Positions 29,578-40,699 are shown, counted from the stretch's first letter. The stretch: 41,471 bases of DNA from Fibrobacteria bacterium (GCA_041746255.1 JBGTHM010000001.1:1-41471), one strand, 5' to 3'. Made by a program: numbers and translations. The notes: generated by a model from the sequence alone, not told the origin.

Positions 29578-32481
29578 ATGACCCCAACATCCCGGTCCCT
29601 CCCGCAAGCAGCCTTTTTCTCGGATAGACATATCGGCCCCAACGCGGAGGAACAGCAAGCCATGCTTGAGGCGCTGGGGGAAAAGTCCCTCGACGGCTTG
29701 GTGGACAAAACGGTACCGGCTTCGATTCGGTTGCGGAAACCCTTGAACATTCCCGCCAATCCCGACGAACATGCCTTCTTGCAGGAATTCCGGAAACTTG
29801 CGGACAAGAATCAGATTTTCAAATCCTATATCGGCATGGGCTATCACGGCTGCATTACGCCGCCGGTCATTCAAAGAAACATTCTGGAAAATCCCGGCTG
29901 GTACACGCAGTATACGCCCTATCAAGCCGAGATAGCCCAGGGACGGCTGGAAGCCCTGCTTAATTTCCAAACTTTGGTTTCGGATTTGACCGGACTTCCC
30001 GTCTCCAACGCCTCCTTGCTCGACGAAGCCACGGCCGCCGCCGAGGCGATGAATTTGCTGTACGCAGCCTCGCGGAGGGATCGCGAAGCGGCCATGGTTT
30101 TTTTCGCTTCCGACAAATGCCATCCCCAGACATTGGCCGTCTTGGAAACCCGGGCCCGTCCACTTGGAATCGAGTTACGGGTGGGAAGCGCCGAGGATTT
30201 CGACTTTCCCGCCTCCTGCTTCGGAGCTTTGCTGCAATATCCCGACACCGACGGCGCGGTTATCGACCCCACCGCCTTTTGCGCACAAGCGAGCAAGGCG
30301 GGAATACGGACGGTGCTGGCCGCCGACTTGCTGGCCTTGACCTTGTTGAAATCGCCCGGCGAATGTGGAGCGGATATCGCGGTGGGATCCTCTCAACGCT
30401 TCGGCGTGCCCATGGGATACGGCGGACCACATGCGGCGTTTTTCGCCACCCGCGAAGAGTTCAAGCGCATTCTCCCCGGACGTATCATCGGCGTTTCGGT
30501 GGACGCGCGCGGTAAAACCGCGTATCGCATGGCCCTGCAAACGCGGGAACAACATATCCGCCGCGAAAAAGCCACCAGCAATATCTGCACGTCGCAAGTA
30601 CTCTTGGCCGTGATGGCCGGCATGTACGCCGTTTACCATGGCCCGCAAGGGCTCAAGGCCATCGCCTCTCGCGTTCACGCTCTGGCGCGCAAGCTCGACG
30701 CGGAACTGGTGAAAATGGGTTGTCGTAGCCTGCACGACGCTTACTTCGATACCTTGCGCATGGGATTGCCGGACGCGGCCTCCGCACGGAGGCTGGCCGT
30801 ACATGCCGAAGCGGCGCGGATTAATTTCCGGCTTCACGGCGACGGCAGCGTAGGCATCAGCCTGGACGAAAGCGTGCAGCCCGAAGATTTCTCCCGGTTG
30901 CTGTCGGTATTCGCCCAAGCTCTGGAAAAGCCCGTTCCCGATTCCAGTATGACGCAGGTTACCGGTTCGGAAACGCCGGTATGGCCGCCCACCTTGACTC
31001 GCACCACGCCTTTTCTCACGCATCCCGTTTTCAATACCTATCGTTCCGAAACCAATATGCTGCGCTATATGCGCTCTTTGGAGAGTAAGGATCTTTCGCT
31101 CACCACCTCCATGATTCCGCTGGGCTCCTGCACCATGAAACTCAACGCCACGGTCGAGATGATGCCCGTTACCTGGCCGGAATTCGCCGAGCCCCACCCC
31201 TTCGCTCCCCGCGCCCAATTGCAAGGCTATGCCGAACTGTTCCGCGGGCTCGAATCCGCACTGGCGGAAATTACCGGTCTGCCCGGCGTTTCGTTGCAAC
31301 CCAATGCGGGATCGCAAGGCGAATATGCGGGACTACTGGTCATCCGCGCCTATCAGGCCGAACGGGGAGAATCACAACGAAACGTGGTACTCATCCCCTC
31401 GTCGGCGCACGGAACCAATCCGGCCAGCGCGGTGATGGCGGGATTCCAGGTGGTGGTGGTCAAGTGCAACGATCGCGGCGACATCGACTTCGACGATTTG
31501 CAACGCCTGACTAAGGAGCATAAGGCCCGGCTGGGCGCCTTGATGATAACCTACCCGTCCACCCATGGGGTGTTCGAAGAAGGCATTCAGGAAATCTGCC
31601 GGGTAGTGCACGACGCGGGCGGCCAGGTCTATATGGACGGCGCCAATATGAACGCCCAAGTGGGATTATGCAATCCCGCCATGGTGGGAGCCGATGTTTG
31701 TCATTTGAATTTGCATAAGACTTTTTGCATTCCGCATGGGGGCGGCGGCCCGGGCATGGGCCCGATTTGCGTCGCACAGCACCTTGTCCCCTTTCTGCCG
31801 GGCCACCCTGTCGTCAGCCCCACGGAGTCGCGCACAAGCTTGACTCCGGTTTCGGCCGCGCCCTGGGGCAGCTCTTCCATCCTTCCCATTTCGTGGGCGT
31901 ATATCCGCATGATGGGCGGCGAAGGCCTGACGCAAGCCACTAAGGTGGCCATTCTCAACGCCAACTATTTGAAACGCTGCCTGGAGAAGCATTACCCGGT
32001 TCTCTACCAAGGTAAGCATGGAACCGTGGCTCATGAGATGATTCTCGACTGCCGCGCCTTCAAGGCTTCGGCGGGTATCGAGGTGGAAGATATCGCCAAG
32101 CGTTTGATGGACTATAACTTCCATGCGCCCACGGTTTCCTTTCCCGTGCCGGGAACGTTGATGATAGAGCCTACGGAAAGCGAATCGAAAGCGGAGTTGG
32201 ACCGGTTCTGCGAAGCCTTGATTTCCATCCGCGAAGAGATTGCCGAAATCGAAGCGGGGCGTGCCGACCGGGTCGACAATCCCCTGAAGAACGCGCCGCA
32301 TACGGCCGACATGGCTTTGAGCGACGAGTGGAAACATTCTTATAGCCGGGAAAAGGCGGTGTTTCCCCTGCCCTATGTGCGCCACCACAAGTTTTGGCCT
32401 AGCGTGGCGCGCATCAACGCGGCTTACGGAGATAAGAATTTGATGTGTGCGTGCCCTCCGTTGGAATCGTATCAGGCTTAA
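29578..32481 (+). CDS. gcvP: Glycine dehydrogenase (decarboxylating), single-chain P protein
   Basis: [64 protein letters not shown] (PLP Lys) and EPTESE motifs. Confidence 0.98.
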
Positions 32482-34515: not shown

Positions 34516-35166
34516 ATGCGTATCGCTTCATTTTTCTTCCCATTCGGTATAATCCTGGCATTGATGGTGCTTTGCTCGCCCATTTACCCCGCTTCGCCAT
34601 CCAAGGTCCAACCCAAACCTGCCAATGCGGCAAAGGTCGAATCGGCAAGTATGGACCGCGCCCAATTGCTGGATATCTATATGTCCGGCGAACTGGACAG
34701 CCTGCTCATGGTTTGTGAAAACATTCGGCGCAAGGGCGCCATGATGACCCGCGACGATTCGATTATGGTTTACAAGCTGTTGGGCGTGGTATACGGTGCC
34801 AATGATTACAATCGGCGAAAATCCGAAAGTTTCTTCTATCAAATGCTGAAACTCAATCCCGATGAAAACCTATTGGCCTTGGCCGTTGGCGACTCCGTGG
34901 AATCGCTTTTTTCGAATGTGCGCGAAAGATACGCGGCCTTGCATCCGGAATACCGTTCGAAAGCCGATTCCCTGAATGGAGGGAGCGAATCATCGACTTC
35001 CGTACCGGCTTCGGTAATCACCCCCCGCGCTCCCGACCGGGGAATCTCCCCCAAGGTCTGGTACGCGGTTGGAGCCACCGCTGCCCTGACTGGCGTAACG
35101 GCATTCGTTCTTCTCAATCAAGAACCGGAAAAAAATGTCAATGTCATCGTCCAACCTATCGAATAA
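34516..35166 (+). CDS. Exported hypothetical protein with TPR-like helical hairpin and C-terminal hydrophobic anchor
   Basis: Signal peptide from ATG 34516, DSIMVYKLLGVVY...FFYQMLKLNP helix pair, Ser/Pro linker, and WYAVGATAALTGVTAFVLL near the C-terminus. Confidence 0.7.
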   Translation: MRIASFFFPFGIILALMVLCSPIYPASPSKVQPKPANAAKVESASMDRAQLLDIYMSGELDSLLMVCENIRRKGAMMTRDDSIMVYKLLGVVYGANDYNRRKSESFFYQMLKLNPDENLLALAVGDSVESLFSNVRERYAALHPEYRSKADSLNGGSESSTSVPASVITPRAPDRGISPKVWYAVGATAALTGVTAFVLLNQEPEKNVNVIVQPIE

Positions 35167-38056
35167 TTCCTACCTCCGTTTCCCAACCTTGCTTCGCCGA
35201 ATAGGACTGCCGCTTTTCGCGCTGGTCGTGATTCCGGTATTGCTTTCCTGCACGAACCTGGCTCCGATAGAGGAGTATGAAATTGAATTCGTTCTTGATC
35301 CTTCCTTGGTAGGAAATTTCGACAGCGTGCAAGTTAAGATTTTTAATGTGAACTCTTCGGGTGAGGTGGATACCGCGAACCCCGTCCAAGTGAGCCTCTT
35401 TCCCTTGGACGAGGATACGCGCAGAATTCGTATGACTCTGAATACCAAAGTGAAGGAAAAATTCCGGGCATCCGTTGTCGGGTATGGCGAGTCGGGTATT
35501 GTCTTCAACAAACAATATGCTTACACGGATTTCGGGGTGGACGGCGACACCCAACCGGTGGACTTGCTTCCTCCTAAAGCTATTCCTCCGCAAGAAATAA
35601 CCGCGGAAGATTTAGTGGGGCTGGTCGGAGATACCTTGGTACCTGCTGTGACTTTCAAGCCTGAAGACGCAACCAATAAAAACTTCGTTTTGACCAGTTC
35701 GGAAAATTCGGTGGTCGAGGTAGTGGGAAAAAAGCTGGTGGCGCTGAAGTTAGGCGAGGCAAAAATCACCGTAAAAACCGAAGCGGGGGATTTGGAAGCG
35801 GTTTTCACCGTCCAAGTCGTGGCCCCTTCCTTCGAGAACCGGATTCTTCCCATTGTGAAATTGAAATGCGCTCCCTGTCACATACCGGGCGAAACCTTTA
35901 ATTTCCAGGATTCTTCCGAGTTGGTGAGATGGGGCGCATCCGCAATTGATCGTCTGGGGAGAAAAGTGGGAGATGGTGGCCGCATGCCTTTGGCTGGGGC
36001 TCCCAACGGGGATTTGAGCGCCGACGAGTTGGAGATATTGGTTAAGTGGCTGGAAGGTGTTGTCGTACCGGCTAAAAGCGTTTCCGCATCCGATATGCAG
36101 GGAACCTTGGGAGATACCTTGGAACTTAAATTGTCCTGGGATCCTCCGGAAGCCACCAATCAGCGTTTTCGGTTGACCAGCTTGGATACAACCAAGGCGA
36201 TCGTGAAAGGCAATCGGATAATACCCCAGGTCATGGGCGACGCTTTTGTGTTGGTGGAGCCGGAAGGCCTGGATCAGCGGCTTACCGTTAAGGTAACCGT
36301 GGGCTCCCCCACGTTTCTAAAGAACGTGCTCCCGATTACCAGCTTTAAATGCGCCCCCTGCCATGTACCGGGTACCATTCGTAATTTCCGGGACTCCACC
36401 GTCCTCATTCAAATGGGATTGCTGGTCATCGAGGCGATGCAAAGGAGTCCGGATGGCGAAAAATTAATCATGCCCGTGCCTGACGCTCCCAATGGCCCGC
36501 TGACTCCTTTGGAGCTTAACGTTATCCGCACTTGGTTGCAGGAAAATATGCCGCCTTCGCAAATCGGCAATCAACCAAGCGACATCCCGCTGGAAGATGT
36601 CGCTGTGGCGGATGACAGCGTATCGCTGGGAGCGGAAATTACGCCCGTCATCACCTGGGTTCCGGACAATGCCTCCAACAAAGCCTACACGCTCCAATCC
36701 GAAGATCCCAAAGTCGAAATTCTCGAAGGAAAGCGCATCAAGGGAAAAGGAGTGGGTACTGCCGAGGTAGAATTAGTCACTCAAGGCGAACGGTTCCGAA
36801 AGAGCTTTAAGGTCAAAGTGGTGTCTATTTCGGTAACCGGAATTTCGGCTGCGGATACAGTCGCGTCGGTGGGAGATATCGTCGTGCCCCGCATTAAGTT
36901 AACGCCGGATAACGCCACCGACACCGAATTTTCCATCGTTTCCGTGGCGGCGGTTTCGCATGTAAACATCAATGGCAAACAAGTGGAAGCCAAATCGGTG
37001 GGCAGAGACACATTAGAAGCGATTTCGATGGACGGAAACCATAAAGCCCGTTTTGAATTTCATGTTCTCGCCACGCTTCCCAAATCCTTGACGGCCGTCG
37101 ATACCTTCGGGGTAATCGGAGTTGGAGTTACACCTCGGCTAATTTGGACTCCCAAGAATACCACCAATACGACTTACACTCTGGCTATACCTGTTGAATT
37201 TGCCGCTCTGGCGGAAATATCCAATGGGCAAGTGATGGGAAAAGCCGAAGGTGATGTGAAGGTAGTAGCTCTCTCAGCTGCGGATCCCGAAATTACCACC
37301 ACCTTCAACTTTCGGGTGGGCCCGATTGCTCCCCAGTCATTGACTGCTATCGATACCTCCGGCATTATCGGTAAAGCGGTAACTCCGCGACTCCTTTGGA
37401 ATCCCGCCAACACCACCCACAAAGGATATACCCTTTCCATAGACCCGGCAGACAATGCCCTGGCGGAAATTACCGAGGGGCGGGTGATGGGAAAAGGCAT
37501 AGGCAATGTGACCGTGACGGCCACCTCTTTGGCGGATACCGACATCACCACAACGTTCACTTTCGAAGTAAAGCCGATTCCGGTTGCCTCGCTTTCGGCT
37601 TTGGACATCACGCTCTACTCCGGCGCGACCGCTTCCGCCCAGCTCACCGTAAGCCCTCCCGAGGCCACCGATAAACGTGTGGAATTGAGCCTGCCGGCAG
37701 CCGCCGACGCCACCCGGGTGGATTTGGCCGGAACCCAGATAACCGGTAAAGCCCTGGGCAGAGCAACCGTTCTGGCCACCACTGTCAATGGAGGAAAAAC
37801 AGACGAATTCACGGTAACCGTCTTGCGCCCTCCCTTTACCGGTGACGGGAATATCCTTCCCATCACCCAGGCGAAATGTGCCGGATGCCATAGTATCACG
37901 TTTCCGAACGTTATGGATTCCGTCACGGTAGTTGCTAATAAAGTAGCTATTCTCGACCGGATCCAAAGAGAGCCGGGAAGCGCGGGCTTCATGCCTGCGG
38001 GAAGCTCTCTAACTCCCGCGGAACTAACCCGATTAATCGACTGGCTCTCCCTGTAG
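35135..38056 (+). CDS. Large lipoprotein with three monoheme cytochrome c domains and seven Ig-like (Big_2-type) domains; start may be TTG 35189
   Basis: Lipobox VLLS-C. CAPCH at 35867, CAPCH at 36350 and CAGCH at 37877, each in an I/VLPI....CxxCH...MP....L...EL.....WL context. Repeated P.NA/T.N....G.A.V.V Ig-like units. Confidence 0.85.
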   Translation: MSMSSSNLSNNSYLRFPTLLRRIGLPLFALVVIPVLLSCTNLAPIEEYEIEFVLDPSLVGNFDSVQVKIFNVNSSGEVDTANPVQVSLFPLDEDTRRIRMTLNTKVKEKFRASVVGYGESGIVFNKQYAYTDFGVDGDTQPVDLLPPKAIPPQEITAEDLVGLVGDTLVPAVTFKPEDATNKNFVLTSSENSVVEVVGKKLVALKLGEAKITVKTEAGDLEAVFTVQVVAPSFENRILPIVKLKCAPCHIPGETFNFQDSSELVRWGASAIDRLGRKVGDGGRMPLAGAPNGDLSADELEILVKWLEGVVVPAKSVSASDMQGTLGDTLELKLSWDPPEATNQRFRLTSLDTTKAIVKGNRIIPQVMGDAFVLVEPEGLDQRLTVKVTVGSPTFLKNVLPITSFKCAPCHVPGTIRNFRDSTVLIQMGLLVIEAMQRSPDGEKLIMPVPDAPNGPLTPLELNVIRTWLQENMPPSQIGNQPSDIPLEDVAVADDSVSLGAEITPVITWVPDNASNKAYTLQSEDPKVEILEGKRIKGKGVGTAEVELVTQGERFRKSFKVKVVSISVTGISAADTVASVGDIVVPRIKLTPDNATDTEFSIVSVAAVSHVNINGKQVEAKSVGRDTLEAISMDGNHKARFEFHVLATLPKSLTAVDTFGVIGVGVTPRLIWTPKNTTNTTYTLAIPVEFAALAEISNGQVMGKAEGDVKVVALSAADPEITTTFNFRVGPIAPQSLTAIDTSGIIGKAVTPRLLWNPANTTHKGYTLSIDPADNALAEITEGRVMGKGIGNVTVTATSLADTDITTTFTFEVKPIPVASLSALDITLYSGATASAQLTVSPPEATDKRVELSLPAAADATRVDLAGTQITGKALGRATVLATTVNGGKTDEFTVTVLRPPFTGDGNILPITQAKCAGCHSITFPNVMDSVTVVANKVAILDRIQREPGSAGFMPAGSSLTPAELTRLIDWLSL
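37073..37576 (+). repeat. Tandem 252-bp (84-aa) duplication of an Ig-like domain
   Basis: Units 37073-37324 and 37325-37576 share P.SLTA.DT.G.IG..VTPRL.W.P.NTT...YTL.I....ALAEI..G.VMGK..G.V.V.A.S.AD..ITTTF.F.V.P, with visible DNA similarity. Confidence 0.85.
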
Positions 38057-38123: not shown

Positions 38124-38546
38124 TCAGGGGTAAGCCTTTTTCATATCCTTCACGGATAGGGAAATCAATTCCTTTAGAACCTTCAAATCGATATCGGCCA
38201 CTTTGTTGATATACACGCAGGATCCGGAACTAACTTTATGCTTTCCGAGCTTTTTCAATAAGTCGGCGTACTTCGCCACTCCCGGCATGATATAAATGGA
38301 AATGTTCTGCTTTCTCGGCGAAAAGCCGGTCAAAGGCCAGTCCCCTTCCTGGGAGCTTCTTTCAGACTTGTAATGATAGGTACCATAGCCAATCATATTG
38401 TTGTTCCACAACGCGGCCTTTTCTTTGGTGGCGGAATCGAAGATTTTTTTAATCGCGAAACTGTCCGCTTTCTTTTGCTCCGATTCGATGGAGTTCAGAA
38501 ACGCGTCAATATCGTCCTTTGTGGACCGGGTTTTTATCTGTCCCAT
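38124..38546 (-). CDS. DUF1801 (YdhG-like) domain protein
   Basis: W..MIGYG.YHYK...EGDW..TGFSPRK..ISIY and LGKHK..SCVYI motifs; GAGGG RBS. Confidence 0.88.
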   Translation of the reverse strand: MGQIKTRSTKDDIDAFLNSIESEQKKADSFAIKKIFDSATKEKAALWNNNMIGYGTYHYKSERSSQEGDWPLTGFSPRKQNISIYIMPGVAKYADLLKKLGKHKVSSGSCVYINKVADIDLKVLKELISLSVKDMKKAYP

Positions 38547-38588: not shown

Positions 38589-39116
38589 TTATGCAAGGGT
38601 GGAGACCATTTTCCGCATTACCGCGGGAACTATCCACTTATGGAACGGCTTTACCGGAATGAAATAAAGCTTTCCCAACTGTCTCCGGAACATTACGATA
38701 GTGGTCAAAACCAGGGTATATTCATTGACCCCGTTCCACGGCGACTTTTCCAGATAGAAGGAAAGCCTGAAATCGAGGTGTTTATCGTCTTCACCGGTTA
38801 TGATTTCCTGCTCATTTCTGTCCAATACTTTGAATAGTCCGAGACTCGCTCCTTTTTCCGCCACGAAATTTTCGATTTCGTGCCGGTCTAATTTCTGCGC
38901 CACTTTTAATCCGATAAAGCCGGCCACTCTTTCCCTAATCTTGAATAGAACAGTAACCCAGGCGGGCATGGTCAAAAAGAGGCCTTTGAAAAAATCGTCG
39001 GGAGACAGGTCTTTCGAAGAAGAAAAACGGCATTGATAGGCATCCTGATAATCGATTCGGGGAAGCGCTCGCGGAATAATCGATTCGCGAGGCGTAGTGG
39101 TGTAGACGATTTTCAT
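38589..39116 (-). CDS. DUF2867 family protein
   Basis: DY.DAY, P.WV..L..IR..V...GLK, GEDDKHLDFRLS and G.LY...VKPFH..IVP motifs. Confidence 0.85.
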   Translation of the reverse strand: MKIVYTTTPRESIIPRALPRIDYQDAYQCRFSSSKDLSPDDFFKGLFLTMPAWVTVLFKIRERVAGFIGLKVAQKLDRHEIENFVAEKGASLGLFKVLDRNEQEIITGEDDKHLDFRLSFYLEKSPWNGVNEYTLVLTTIVMFRRQLGKLYFIPVKPFHKWIVPAVMRKMVSTLA

Positions 39117-39158: not shown

Positions 39159-40175
39159 CTAGGGGAATGACCCAGCCCGCAACAGCATTCGTCCATGCTT
39201 GAGGATAAAAGTCGCACCGACATCCTGCCAATCAAGCGAGGAATTCCTGCGGCCGTCAATTGAAAACACCTCCCCCTGATTTATCCGCTGAGAAAATTTA
39301 AAATCGGGCTTCCCTAGAACCGACATCGATGGGCCCGTCCAGGGCTCGTGCCGGATAAACTCTTCCGCATAAACCGCCATGTTATCGAAATAGGCATGCA
39401 CGGTAGCGTATTCCCCGCTTAAGGTTTTGGGCGCCCAGGAAGGTTCGCTGCCCCCATGAAATGTCGAAAAGTGGACCCGGGTTATTTCGCTCGCGGCGCC
39501 GTCAAGCATTCGGTACTGAATATTGTCTTTTCTCTGGATGAGTTCACCATCGGCGTAAATTCGGAAAGCGCCGTTGGATTCGGAAGCCGGTGAATTGACT
39601 TCGACATAATAACAGATTGTATGATACTTGCCGGATTGAAAGGCGAAAGGTTTAACCTGAACGCCCGCCTCGCCATACTGACCCGCCTGCTTTTGATGGT
39701 AGATATAGGGATCCAGCTTTCCGCCCGCCTTCCACATTCCGCGCGCGGACCATCCGTCCGGTTGGATGGCATTTCCTCCGGTTATGGATCTCGTTGGTCC
39801 GAGTCCATGGAGCTTACCCCCCTTCACGAATTGAAAGTCTTTCTCAAATTTAACGTCGAAACAGAGGGAGGCTTTTGTAAGGCTGTTCGGGAGATTACCG
39901 TATGAAACGATGCGCGCGCTTCCTTGGGATTCTCCGACATAGGTAGCCTTAAGCGCCTGCGAATTCCCCACTCCTTGATCCGTTGAGAGTGAGAGGTGCA
40001 TATGCTCAAGCAACCGGGTGCGGAAATCCTTGGATTCCTTGGAGTATTCCAAGGAATCATCAAAATTAATCCACAGGATGGGGGCGGGCGTAGTCGCGTT
40101 TATCAGAACAGGGGCAATTACGCAAAGGACGAATCCAATTACGGCTTTCGAAATCGCCTGGTGGGATAGGGTCAT
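39159..40175 (-). CDS. Secreted polysaccharide lyase, PL14-like jelly-roll fold
   Basis: Signal peptide, FDVKF..DFQFVKGGKLHGL, GWSAR.MW, YIYH and FSTFHGG..SWAP motifs. ATG 40175 follows GGAG and overlaps the upstream stop (ATGA). Confidence 0.8.
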   Translation of the reverse strand: MTLSHQAISKAVIGFVLCVIAPVLINATTPAPILWINFDDSLEYSKESKDFRTRLLEHMHLSLSTDQGVGNSQALKATYVGESQGSARIVSYGNLPNSLTKASLCFDVKFEKDFQFVKGGKLHGLGPTRSITGGNAIQPDGWSARGMWKAGGKLDPYIYHQKQAGQYGEAGVQVKPFAFQSGKYHTICYYVEVNSPASESNGAFRIYADGELIQRKDNIQYRMLDGAASEITRVHFSTFHGGSEPSWAPKTLSGEYATVHAYFDNMAVYAEEFIRHEPWTGPSMSVLGKPDFKFSQRINQGEVFSIDGRRNSSLDWQDVGATFILKHGRMLLRAGSFP

Positions 40176-40699
40176 GGATTCTCCCGTACCCGAATGTGAA
40201 AGTAATTTCCGAAGGAACTGATTTTCCTTCCATTGACAAGATGCCATGCGGGGTCATTAACCGGTATTTTTTCTGGAACTCCCATTTTTTCAGGTATGTT
40301 AATGAAAGAAGCCCCGATGACTTCAAAATAGCTAGAGTCGCCTAAATCCTTTTTGAAGTCGCTGGTAGAATCAAATTGAATTTTATAGAGCCCTATTTGA
40401 AAGTTTTCAAATTCAATTTTGGGGCCACTATACCCCATAAGCGTCGCGCAGTTCGGTCCTTGGATGGCTTTGATATTGATTAGGGTTGTCCGCTTTGAAC
40501 TGATAGGTGTGGGAAGAAGTTCATACGACACGTCGTAGCTGTAAAGGCATGCGTTGTATTCGAATGCCTCGAAAGTAACTCTTTGTCCGGAAGTAGCCAC
40601 CTTAGGAGTTAGGGTGTAATAGAAGTCCCCGATAGGGGGCTGGGGGAAAAGGCTAGAAGCCAAACCAAACATGGCCAGCATAATTAATCTTGGGTTCAT
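40172..40699 (-). CDS. Secreted hypothetical protein
   Basis: Signal peptide from ATG 40699 with GGAG RBS; beta-rich domain with a Cys pair; tail containing WHLVNGRKI. Confidence 0.65.
   Translation of the reverse strand: MNPRLIMLAMFGLASSLFPQPPIGDFYYTLTPKVATSGQRVTFEAFEYNACLYSYDVSYELLPTPISSKRTTLINIKAIQGPNCATLMGYSGPKIEFENFQIGLYKIQFDSTSDFKKDLGDSSYFEVIGASFINIPEKMGVPEKIPVNDPAWHLVNGRKISSFGNYFHIRVRENP

Follow-up and report, generated by a model that had tools for sequence, protein, structure and literature searches.

A predicted lipid-anchored cytochrome c with three haem modules on an Ig-domain rod in Fibrobacterota

The window analyzed here is a 41,471-nt stretch of DNA from a Fibrobacteria bacterium (GCA_041746255.1 JBGTHM010000001.1:1-41471), in which positions are counted from the first nucleotide. 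On its + strand, an open reading frame (ORF) at 35135..38056 encodes 973 aa plus a stop codon. A preliminary description of this DNA had read the product as a lipoprotein with cytochrome c domains strung on a rod of immunoglobulin (Ig)-type domains, in the order lipobox, N-terminal domain, Ig, cytochrome, Ig, cytochrome, five Ig, cytochrome. We call it the tri-haem protein. Its gene is preceded by, and overlaps with, a small gene for a putative membrane partner (34516..35166, + strand), and the two appear to form a cassette that recurs in the same genome with other lipoproteins.

The tri-haem protein opens with a signal peptide (35135..35251) containing the lipobox LLSC (residues 36–39) with Cys39. 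A beta domain without known family follows (residues ~40–145, 35252..35569); it carries the motif [FY]DS[LV]xVxI, and AlphaFold2 (AF2) placed strands in it from residue 49 to 130. This domain gave neither a Pfam match nor a useful lead in the ESM Atlas, where the whole protein also returned no useful lead. Ig domain 1 (residues 154–229, 35594..35821) is of the Big_2 type, with the best Pfam stretch at 153–218, and is followed by haem module 1 (residues 233–309, 35831..36061), which holds CAPCH at residues 245–249 (nt 35867–35881) and the pair M284-P285. Ig domain 2 (residues 315–390, 36077..36304) leads into haem module 2 (residues 394–471, 36314..36547; CAPCH 406–410, nt 36350–36364; M446-P447). 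Next comes a low-confidence linker rich in Pro, Ser and Gln (residues 472–487, 36548..36595), with a predicted local distance difference test score (pLDDT) below 50 at residues 476–483. Five further Ig domains (residues 488–563, 569–645, 651–729, 735–813 and 819–897; 36596..37825) form a stalk, and the chain ends in haem module 3 (residues 898–973, 37826..38053; CAGCH 915–919, nt 37877–37891; M953-P954), where the Pfam family PF13442 has its best stretch at 912–971. All of these features lie on the + strand; the Ig domains were delimited with the AF2 model and the haem modules with motifs, alignment and model together, the third also with Pfam.

The tri-haem protein contains seven cysteines: one is Cys39 of the lipobox, and the others all belong to the three CxxCH motifs. 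Each CxxCH is followed after ~35–40 residues by Met-Pro, and each module closes with an L...EL.....WL helix (in module 1, L294, E298-L299 and W305-L306); the ORF thus contains everything that had been described for the motifs at residues 245, 406 and 915. Scanned as a whole, the protein scores 43.9 bits with Big_2 (cut-off 22.8) and 30.4 bits with Cytochrome_CBB3 (PF13442; cut-off 27), and the Pfam scan found no carbohydrate-binding module (CBM) in it.

A protein homology search recovered 34 proteins at E ≤ 0.001 among 7994 scored candidates: the protein itself, 16 relatives with three CxxCH motifs (31–42% identity, 907–1210 aa), two shorter proteins with two CxxCH motifs, and 15 plain Big_2 proteins without CxxCH. 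We aligned the tri-haem protein with 15 relatives (alignment A1, 16 sequences), omitting the self match P0002, the N-terminally cut P0009, and P0018 and P0020, which are short and have two CxxCH motifs. Although overall identity in A1 is only 32–40%, no row (16/16) departs from S38 and C39 of the lipobox, from the three C/C/H triplets, from the three Met-Pro pairs, or from D63 and S64 of the N-terminal domain. The CxxCH motifs are equally invariant in a second set of 23 modules (23/23), and so is Met-Pro. Because these residues are held invariant at so low an overall identity, and given the Pfam scores, the layout of a lipobox, seven Ig domains and three CxxCH modules is above chance and is confirmed as an observation.

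The AF2 model, computed on the 16-sequence alignment, has a mean pLDDT of 79.6 and a predicted TM-score (pTM) of 0.33, at which the relative placement of the domains is unreliable. Its elements nevertheless reproduce the domain order given in the preliminary description: a signal helix (20–36), the beta domain, an Ig domain, a helical segment (233–309), a second Ig domain, a second helical segment (394–471), the linker, the five Ig domains (together 488–897) and a C-terminal helical module (907–972). Helices at 233–244, 394–406 and 907–915 lead into the three CxxCH motifs. The linker at 472–487 is the sole disordered spacer in the protein and is partly an insertion specific to it, appearing as a gap in all other rows of A1. 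Compared as a whole with the PDB by Foldseek, the model returned Ig-rod proteins only (the GhpA grappling hook, S-layer proteins and cadherins; TM 0.1–0.2), and the matches of a further PDB profile search are all Ig domains. With Big_2 above its cut-off and seven modelled Ig domains, the assignment to the Big_2 Ig-rod proteins is borne out. The lipobox with its invariant Cys, together with signal peptidase II genes in the genome (three Peptidase_A8, or LspA, matches), is what a lipoprotein calls for, lipidation itself being predicted. A complex prediction that paired residues 150–480 (Ig-cyt1-Ig-cyt2) with residues 815–973 (Ig7-cyt3) scored 0.00 and gave no answer, speaking neither for nor against binding. 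Promoter and terminator scans at the gene stayed at chance level.

Folded domains separate the haem motifs of the tri-haem protein, the second starting 161 residues after the first and the third 509 residues after the second. Across the family, the first distance is tightly kept: cyt1 and cyt2 are separated by 157–170 residues, or one Ig domain, in 22/22 three-haem members. The second is 403–425 residues, or four Ig domains, in 20/22, the exceptions being the protein studied here (509 residues) and P0042 (155 residues). The extra length in our protein has a plain candidate source, as the third and fourth Ig domains of the stalk (651–729 and 735–813; window positions 37085–37573) are 58% identical and form a tandem duplicate; no DNA-level repeat was found under them with Tandem Repeats Finder. 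The protein sequences indicate that the extra Ig domain is a lineage-specific duplication that lengthened the stalk from four domains to five. The five-domain stalk that had been described is hence present in this protein, but one of its domains is such a duplicate and other members have four. The distance from the lipid anchor to cyt1 is far less constant, at 206 to 524 residues across three-haem members, and in 17 of the 22 it is 369–524 residues, which leaves room for ~3–5 Ig domains. The earlier placement of two haems near the membrane consequently holds for the protein studied here but does not extend to its family.

To characterize the haem modules we built a profile (A2) of 23 modules from the window and eight related loci, against which module 2 scores 98.8 bits. 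In the PDB, A2 matched best to the monohaem cytochrome 4rlr (E 0.003), followed by a haem region at the C-terminus of hydrazine synthase alpha (E 0.014); neither match extends beyond the N-terminal helix and CxxCH. Among 1.84 billion representative proteins, A2 matched 3407 at E ≤ 0.001, 274 at E ≤ 1e-10 and 20 at E ≤ 1e-30. Thirteen of the matches listed were set aside as family members or fragments by length and motif pattern; sorted by the spacing of their CxxCH motifs, the 130 listed matches from outside the family comprise 54 with tandem motifs, 53 with spaced motifs, 22 mixed and one with a single motif.

Pfam places PSCyt1 (PF07635) above cut-off in 10 of 20 remote matches that we sampled, and the PSCyt1 "Planctomycete cytochrome C" modules of Planctomycetes–Verrucomicrobia–Chlamydiae (PVC) bacteria appear to be homologous to the haem module. 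In hhalign, A2 aligned over 75 columns with 34 modules from nine PSCyt1-bearing matches at 98.8% probability (E 1.4e-16), a comparison that is not fully independent, as these templates were themselves found with A2. The two kinds of module share F-x3-[IV]-x-P-I-x3-K-C-x2-C-H, then M-P, then L-[ST]-x2-E-[LI]-x2-[LI]-x2-W-[LI]. The Fibrobacterota module differs in that the central loop of PSCyt1 is missing from the alignment, and the tri-haem protein in that it has no PSD or PSCyt2 domains; its lipoprotein rod layout is specific to one Fibrobacterota family. The PSCyt1 model of Pfam itself matches neither the whole tri-haem protein nor its single modules.

Modelled without haem, a single module forms four helices (pLDDT 80.5, pTM 0.71). 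When this model was compared with 48,161 chains by VIA-align, the three best rows were haem c domains, namely the N-terminal haem domain of YhjA (9qdt, Z 5.7), PccH (4rlr, Z 5.5) and the iron oxidase FoxE (5mab, Z 4.8), with 77–80 residues aligned at 19–21% identity; by the tool's own caution Z values of 5–6 are modest, and the next row, an unrelated protein, has Z 3.8. Unlike the tri-haem protein, these three are soluble or otherwise built and have no Ig rods. The monohaem, class-I-like pattern with His/Met ligation that had been proposed is in keeping with the invariant motifs, the helical models and these best fold matches to c-type cytochromes. We conclude that the modules are probably divergent, shortened monohaem cytochrome c domains of the PSCyt1 or PccH type, with predicted haem binding and His/Met ligation, and we infer that the Met of each Met-Pro pair would serve as the distal haem ligand.

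Several remote relatives carry the same haem module type in other settings. P0071, an Ignavibacteria "hypothetical protein", has a sorting tail of the type IX secretion system (T9SS), and P0057 joins the module to domains of copper type II monooxygenases. In P0051 and P0145, both unstudied, haem modules are interleaved with fn3, Big_7 or Kre9-type beta domains; one protein of this kind has five haem modules, one every ~295 residues, with fn3, Big_7 or Kre9.

The gene upstream of the tri-haem gene encodes a signal peptide, a helical, tetratricopeptide repeat (TPR)-like domain of ~110 aa, a linker and a C-terminal transmembrane helix. Its ORF is listed from 34297, with the conserved part beginning at the Met at 34516, and it overlaps the start of the tri-haem gene by 32 nt. 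The TPR-like domain bears the family motif EDSxFxYKYLGVIY...ESYFYQML. No Pfam or NCBIfam family matched the partner protein, homology searches with it and with the partner alignment A4 recovered proteins of its own genome and one unnamed protein only, and the A4 profile had no match in the PDB.

The host genome (G000) encodes six paralogues of the partner, at C89:11189-11827, C97:20456-21070, C97:59050-59667, C125:78481-79113, C102:10138-10773 and C80:24762-25856. Five of the six lie directly upstream of, and on the same strand as, a gene for a lipoprotein of 752–1085 aa. The rods of these five sister lipoproteins are of Ig type (Big_9, cadherin-like, PKD, Big_2), their heads include a right-handed beta-helix, Laminin_G_3 and Calx-beta, and none of the five contains a CxxCH motif. 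In the sixth paralogue (C80:24762-25856, L051), a C-terminal part takes the place of the transmembrane helix and matches the outer-membrane beta-barrel model OMP_b-brl at 28.4 bits, just short of the cut-off of 28.7; this junction hints that the partner family acts at the outer membrane.

Aligned with one another (A3), the N-terminal parts of the six cassette lipoproteins are 18–23% identical and share the pattern of a lipobox, LxFxL and [YF]DS[LV]xVxI. D63, invariant in the cytochrome family, is also invariant across the six. Searched against the genome, a hidden Markov model of the N-terminal domain gave one weak match (E 0.15), to a sister lipoprotein, and because the match is weak the case for a common N-terminal domain rests on the low-identity alignment A3. 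By coordinates, the partner gene adjoins the cytochrome gene in five further genomes (G256, G261, G263, G264 and G274), just as in the window; a tblastn search placed it beside the cytochrome gene in two of the eight related loci, which may overlap with those five. In a scan of the phylum, the partner family is expanded in the Fibrobacterota families f1 (that of the window), f2 and f3 and absent from f6 (0/151); with the best 10 candidates per genome scored, at least 10 matches were found in 16 of the 35 genomes with a match. Read from these sequence comparisons, the tri-haem protein is the cytochrome-bearing payload of a putative lineage-specific, paralogous cassette, newly recognized here, that pairs a stalked lipoprotein with a small TPR-like membrane partner.

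The host genome is 4.59 Mb in size and 100% complete. It encodes CcsA (80 bits) and ResB (30.1 bits) and therefore has System II cytochrome c maturation, the kind of system for which the preliminary description had proposed looking. It also has five COX1 matches, pointing to several haem-copper oxidases, and many other c-type cytochromes. Among these are a PSCyt1 protein, one that resembles hydrazine synthase alpha, di-haem peroxidases, and several cytochromes c that are soluble or anchored.

Relatives of the tri-haem protein are confined to the same phylum at the level of loci, as all eight confirmed loci in a collection of species genomes (8/8) are Fibrobacterota metagenome-assembled genomes. 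The module profile matched 24 of 296 genomes of the phylum; in family f1 it matched 15 of the 31 other genomes, or 16/32 with the host genome included, and in f6 none (0/151). The layout as such is confined to one Fibrobacterota family, which is environmental, aerobic and cytochrome-c-maturing. Within f1, COX1 is found in 32/32 genomes and CcsA in 31/32, counts that include one genome flagged as unpublished (G254). Because only half of the f1 genomes carry the tri-haem protein, against near-universal COX1 and CcsA, the gene counts indicate that it is an accessory of an aerobic Fibrobacterota lineage, outside the core respiratory chain. In relatives, the gene sits among housekeeping genes: those upstream are for thiolase and beta-oxidation, and those downstream encode an Rrf2 regulator, succinyl-CoA synthetase and malate dehydrogenase.

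The closest functional parallel that we found is PgcA of Geobacter sulfurreducens. According to the study describing it (PMC10570954), PgcA combines a lipobox and an N-terminal domain for secretion with three domains of one haem each, which are joined by Pro-Thr strings; the haem has His-Met ligation in the first two of them. PgcA can reduce oxides of Fe(III) and Mn(IV). Electron exchange requires haems to come within 15 Å of each other, so that contacts depend on flexibility, and the term "microbial heme-tethered redox strings" is used for this design. The tri-haem protein resembles PgcA in its lipobox, its N-terminal non-haem domain and its three separate monohaem domains, too far apart for fixed haem-to-haem transfer. 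It differs in its spacers, which are one and four to five folded Big_2 Ig domains instead of Pro-Thr strings; moreover, PgcA is cleaved and released, and Geobacter is a metal reducer whereas the Fibrobacterota host is aerobic. Sequence homology to PgcA was not found: the module profile gave 34 rows in the PDB at E ≤ 10, and the PgcA structure 8qk0 does not occur in them. If it carries electrons as proposed below, the tri-haem protein would be a rigid-rod counterpart of PgcA.

Other known systems match in part. PSCyt-type modules combined with Big_2 or CBM domains, of unknown function, are described for Verrucomicrobia in the available text of PMC5615132, so that such modules with Big_2, fn3 or CBM domains are a precedent in kind, albeit unstudied. 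Big_2 Ig-rod surface proteins, among them adhesins, S-layer proteins and GhpA, share the string of beta-sandwiches (seven, of Big_2 type, in our protein) joined by short linkers, but the rod proteins matched have no in-line haem modules. An Mtr-type porin-cytochrome conduit has closely packed bis-His haems and an MtrB-type porin; in the tri-haem protein, by contrast, the haem motifs are far apart in sequence (161 and 509 residues), and the genome gave no match to PF11854. We found no solved structure with the tri-haem Ig-rod architecture in the PDB profile search and no characterized protein with it in our literature searches, so that these searches gave no characterized case of the architecture that had been called unfamiliar. 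The claim that the design is novel stands to that extent and has to be tempered by the precedents in kind, PgcA and the PSCyt modules with Big_2, fn3 or CBM domains.

Taken together, sequence and models lead us to propose, at a probability of about 0.45 and so slightly below even odds, that the tri-haem protein is a lipid-anchored, rod-shaped, tri-haem c-type cytochrome that acts as a tethered single-electron carrier of the collision type, without a continuous haem wire and probably displayed at the surface. Haem attachment would take place in the periplasm, with His and Met as the ligands. The lipid-anchored protein, with the TPR-like membrane partner from the upstream gene, would then be displayed on its stalk, most likely at the cell surface. 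An Ig domain is ~4 nm long and tunnelling reaches ~1.5 nm; because of this mismatch, neither the gap between cyt1 and cyt2 (one Ig domain) nor that between cyt2 and cyt3 (four to five) should be bridgeable along one extended chain. For the tunnelling range between haems we used the 15 Å of the PgcA paper (PMC10570954, available text). Electron exchange would instead call for the linker that follows cyt2 to bend as a hinge, for neighboring rods to touch, or for diffusible partners. The protein would have an accessory role, in which it exchanges electrons between the cell envelope and a donor or acceptor outside the cytoplasm.

A surface location is favored because the five sister cassettes carry heads of surface type (beta-helix, ConA-like lectin, cadherin-like and Calx-beta), and because one relative of the haem module, P0071, has a T9SS tail. 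The following points weigh against the proposal. The export-signal charge of the tri-haem protein is 0, with acidic residues only from position +7; in the available text of a 2026 preprint on Bacteroidota, this charge is the criterion for the export signal, and the translocon subunits are described as conserved across the Fibrobacteres–Chlorobi–Bacteroidetes (FCB) superphylum. Haem binding and location are both predictions, and the placement of the domains in the model is unreliable, as noted above. Taken singly, the modules score below the PF13442 cut-off (19.1 bits for module 1, no match for module 2, 20.6 bits for module 3). Besides the modest Z values from VIA-align, a Foldseek search with the module model had no match in the PDB at E ≤ 0.001, its first row, domain 3 of PgcA (8qk0; E 1.1, TM 0.35–0.43), being not significant. 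Sixteen of the 31 other f1 genomes lack the family, as does a 100% complete genome of the same genus (G265), and in the related loci no redox partner gene is conserved beside the tri-haem gene. We found no LPMO_10 gene for a lytic polysaccharide monooxygenase (LPMO) in the 100%-complete genome and no MtrB-type porin (PF11854), the latter a weak test in which no control genome exceeded the cut-off. It is because of the export-signal charge that we hold surface display of the tethered carrier at no more than the probability given above and keep a periplasmic role in play.

That alternative, which we regard as unlikely but worth keeping, would make the protein a membrane-tethered, high-potential cytochrome c of the periplasm that ferries electrons from quinol-oxidizing complexes to terminal oxidases or peroxidases, the Ig rod setting its reach. 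Oxidases usually accept electrons from monohaem modules with His/Met ligation, and the genome has the five COX1 matches, a di-haem peroxidase and several cytochromes c, either soluble or anchored; the C-terminal transmembrane helix of the partner would fit anchoring in the inner membrane. The protein is, however, dispensable for the core chain, as it occurs in only 16 of the 32 f1 genomes in which COX1 is universal and CcsA nearly so. With eight beta domains and three modules, the rod would moreover roughly equal or exceed in length the width of a typical periplasm, and the heads of the sister cassettes are of a surface type.

If the cassette is a dedicated display system that holds haems at fixed heights, neighboring rods might constitute a two-dimensional "cytochrome lawn" that moves electrons over tens of nanometres without a multihaem wire or a porin conduit, an idea to which we assign a low probability. 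In another reading, which we regard as very unlikely, rods would oligomerize or pack side by side until haems of different chains come within tunnelling distance, giving a conductive layer or fiber. The near-constant spacings from cyt1 over one Ig to cyt2, and from cyt2 over four Ig to cyt3, suggest that register matters, and transfer within one extended chain is not feasible; yet the protein studied here and P0042 both depart from the four-Ig spacing.

The haem modules could also serve as a tethered electron donor to an extracellular oxidative enzyme that attacks polymers, much as the cytochrome domain of cellobiose dehydrogenase feeds LPMOs. The fusion of the module to copper type II monooxygenase domains in P0057, the beta-helix and lectin heads of the sister cassettes, and a PL14 lyase gene 1.1 kb downstream on the opposite strand are compatible with this, and Fibrobacterota are known as polysaccharide degraders (available text of PMC11495043). 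Since no LPMO_10 was found in the complete genome, no oxidative enzyme gene is conserved beside the family and the protein has no detected CBM, we consider such a role improbable. Improbable, too, is that the protein is mainly an adhesin or structural surface protein whose haem modules bind ligands, sense or scavenge peroxide: Big_2 rods are typical of adhesins and the whole model finds Ig-rod proteins only, but the invariant distal Met-Pro in all three modules indicates six-coordinate haem, which is ill-suited to ligand binding or peroxidase chemistry.

Were the tethered-carrier proposal true, it would add to the known means of long-range biological electron transfer. These have so far been packed multihaem wires and the flexible "haems on a string" of PgcA; a rigid Ig rod that carries single haems at conserved intervals would add a third, one that raises the question of how electrons cross gaps of 4–20 nm. 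It would also mean that aerobic, polymer-degrading bacteria that do not reduce metals display cytochromes on stalks. The cassette points, in addition, to an uncharacterized and highly expanded two-gene display system in environmental Fibrobacterota.

Downstream of the tri-haem gene, the window contains, all on the − strand, genes for DUF2867 and DUF1801 proteins (38589-39116 and 38124-38546) and the PL14 polysaccharide lyase (39159-40247); the glycine cleavage P-protein is encoded upstream on the + strand (29578-32481). None of these neighbors is kept beside the family in relatives. Six of the eight related loci encode, convergent to the cytochrome gene, a 274-aa secreted protein without known family (L010:6515-7339 on the − strand; L012, L014-L017). 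We considered this conserved neighbor (P0186) as a partner and dropped it, as in the host genome it is encoded elsewhere (C104:1839-2666). DNA of the window occurs in sequencing runs labelled hot springs metagenome, from one hot-springs study; the runs listed are all of DNA, with none of RNA among them.

The host genome also encodes other proteins with CxxCH motifs or candidate haem modules. Two paralogues of ~784 aa (C21:5246-7597 and C83:48239-50587) have eight CxxCH motifs each, fused to HEAT and TPR repeats. At C34:47449-49671 and C130:32-2686 lie a di-haem protein with a hydrazine-synthase-alpha middle domain and a glucose/sorbosone dehydrogenase fused to PSCyt1-like haem modules. Three tandem paralogous ORFs of 469–491 aa at C19:120041-124393 contain two CxxCH motifs each; two of them have no Pfam family, and the third matches Cytochrome_CBB3 at 24.9 bits, below the cut-off of 27.

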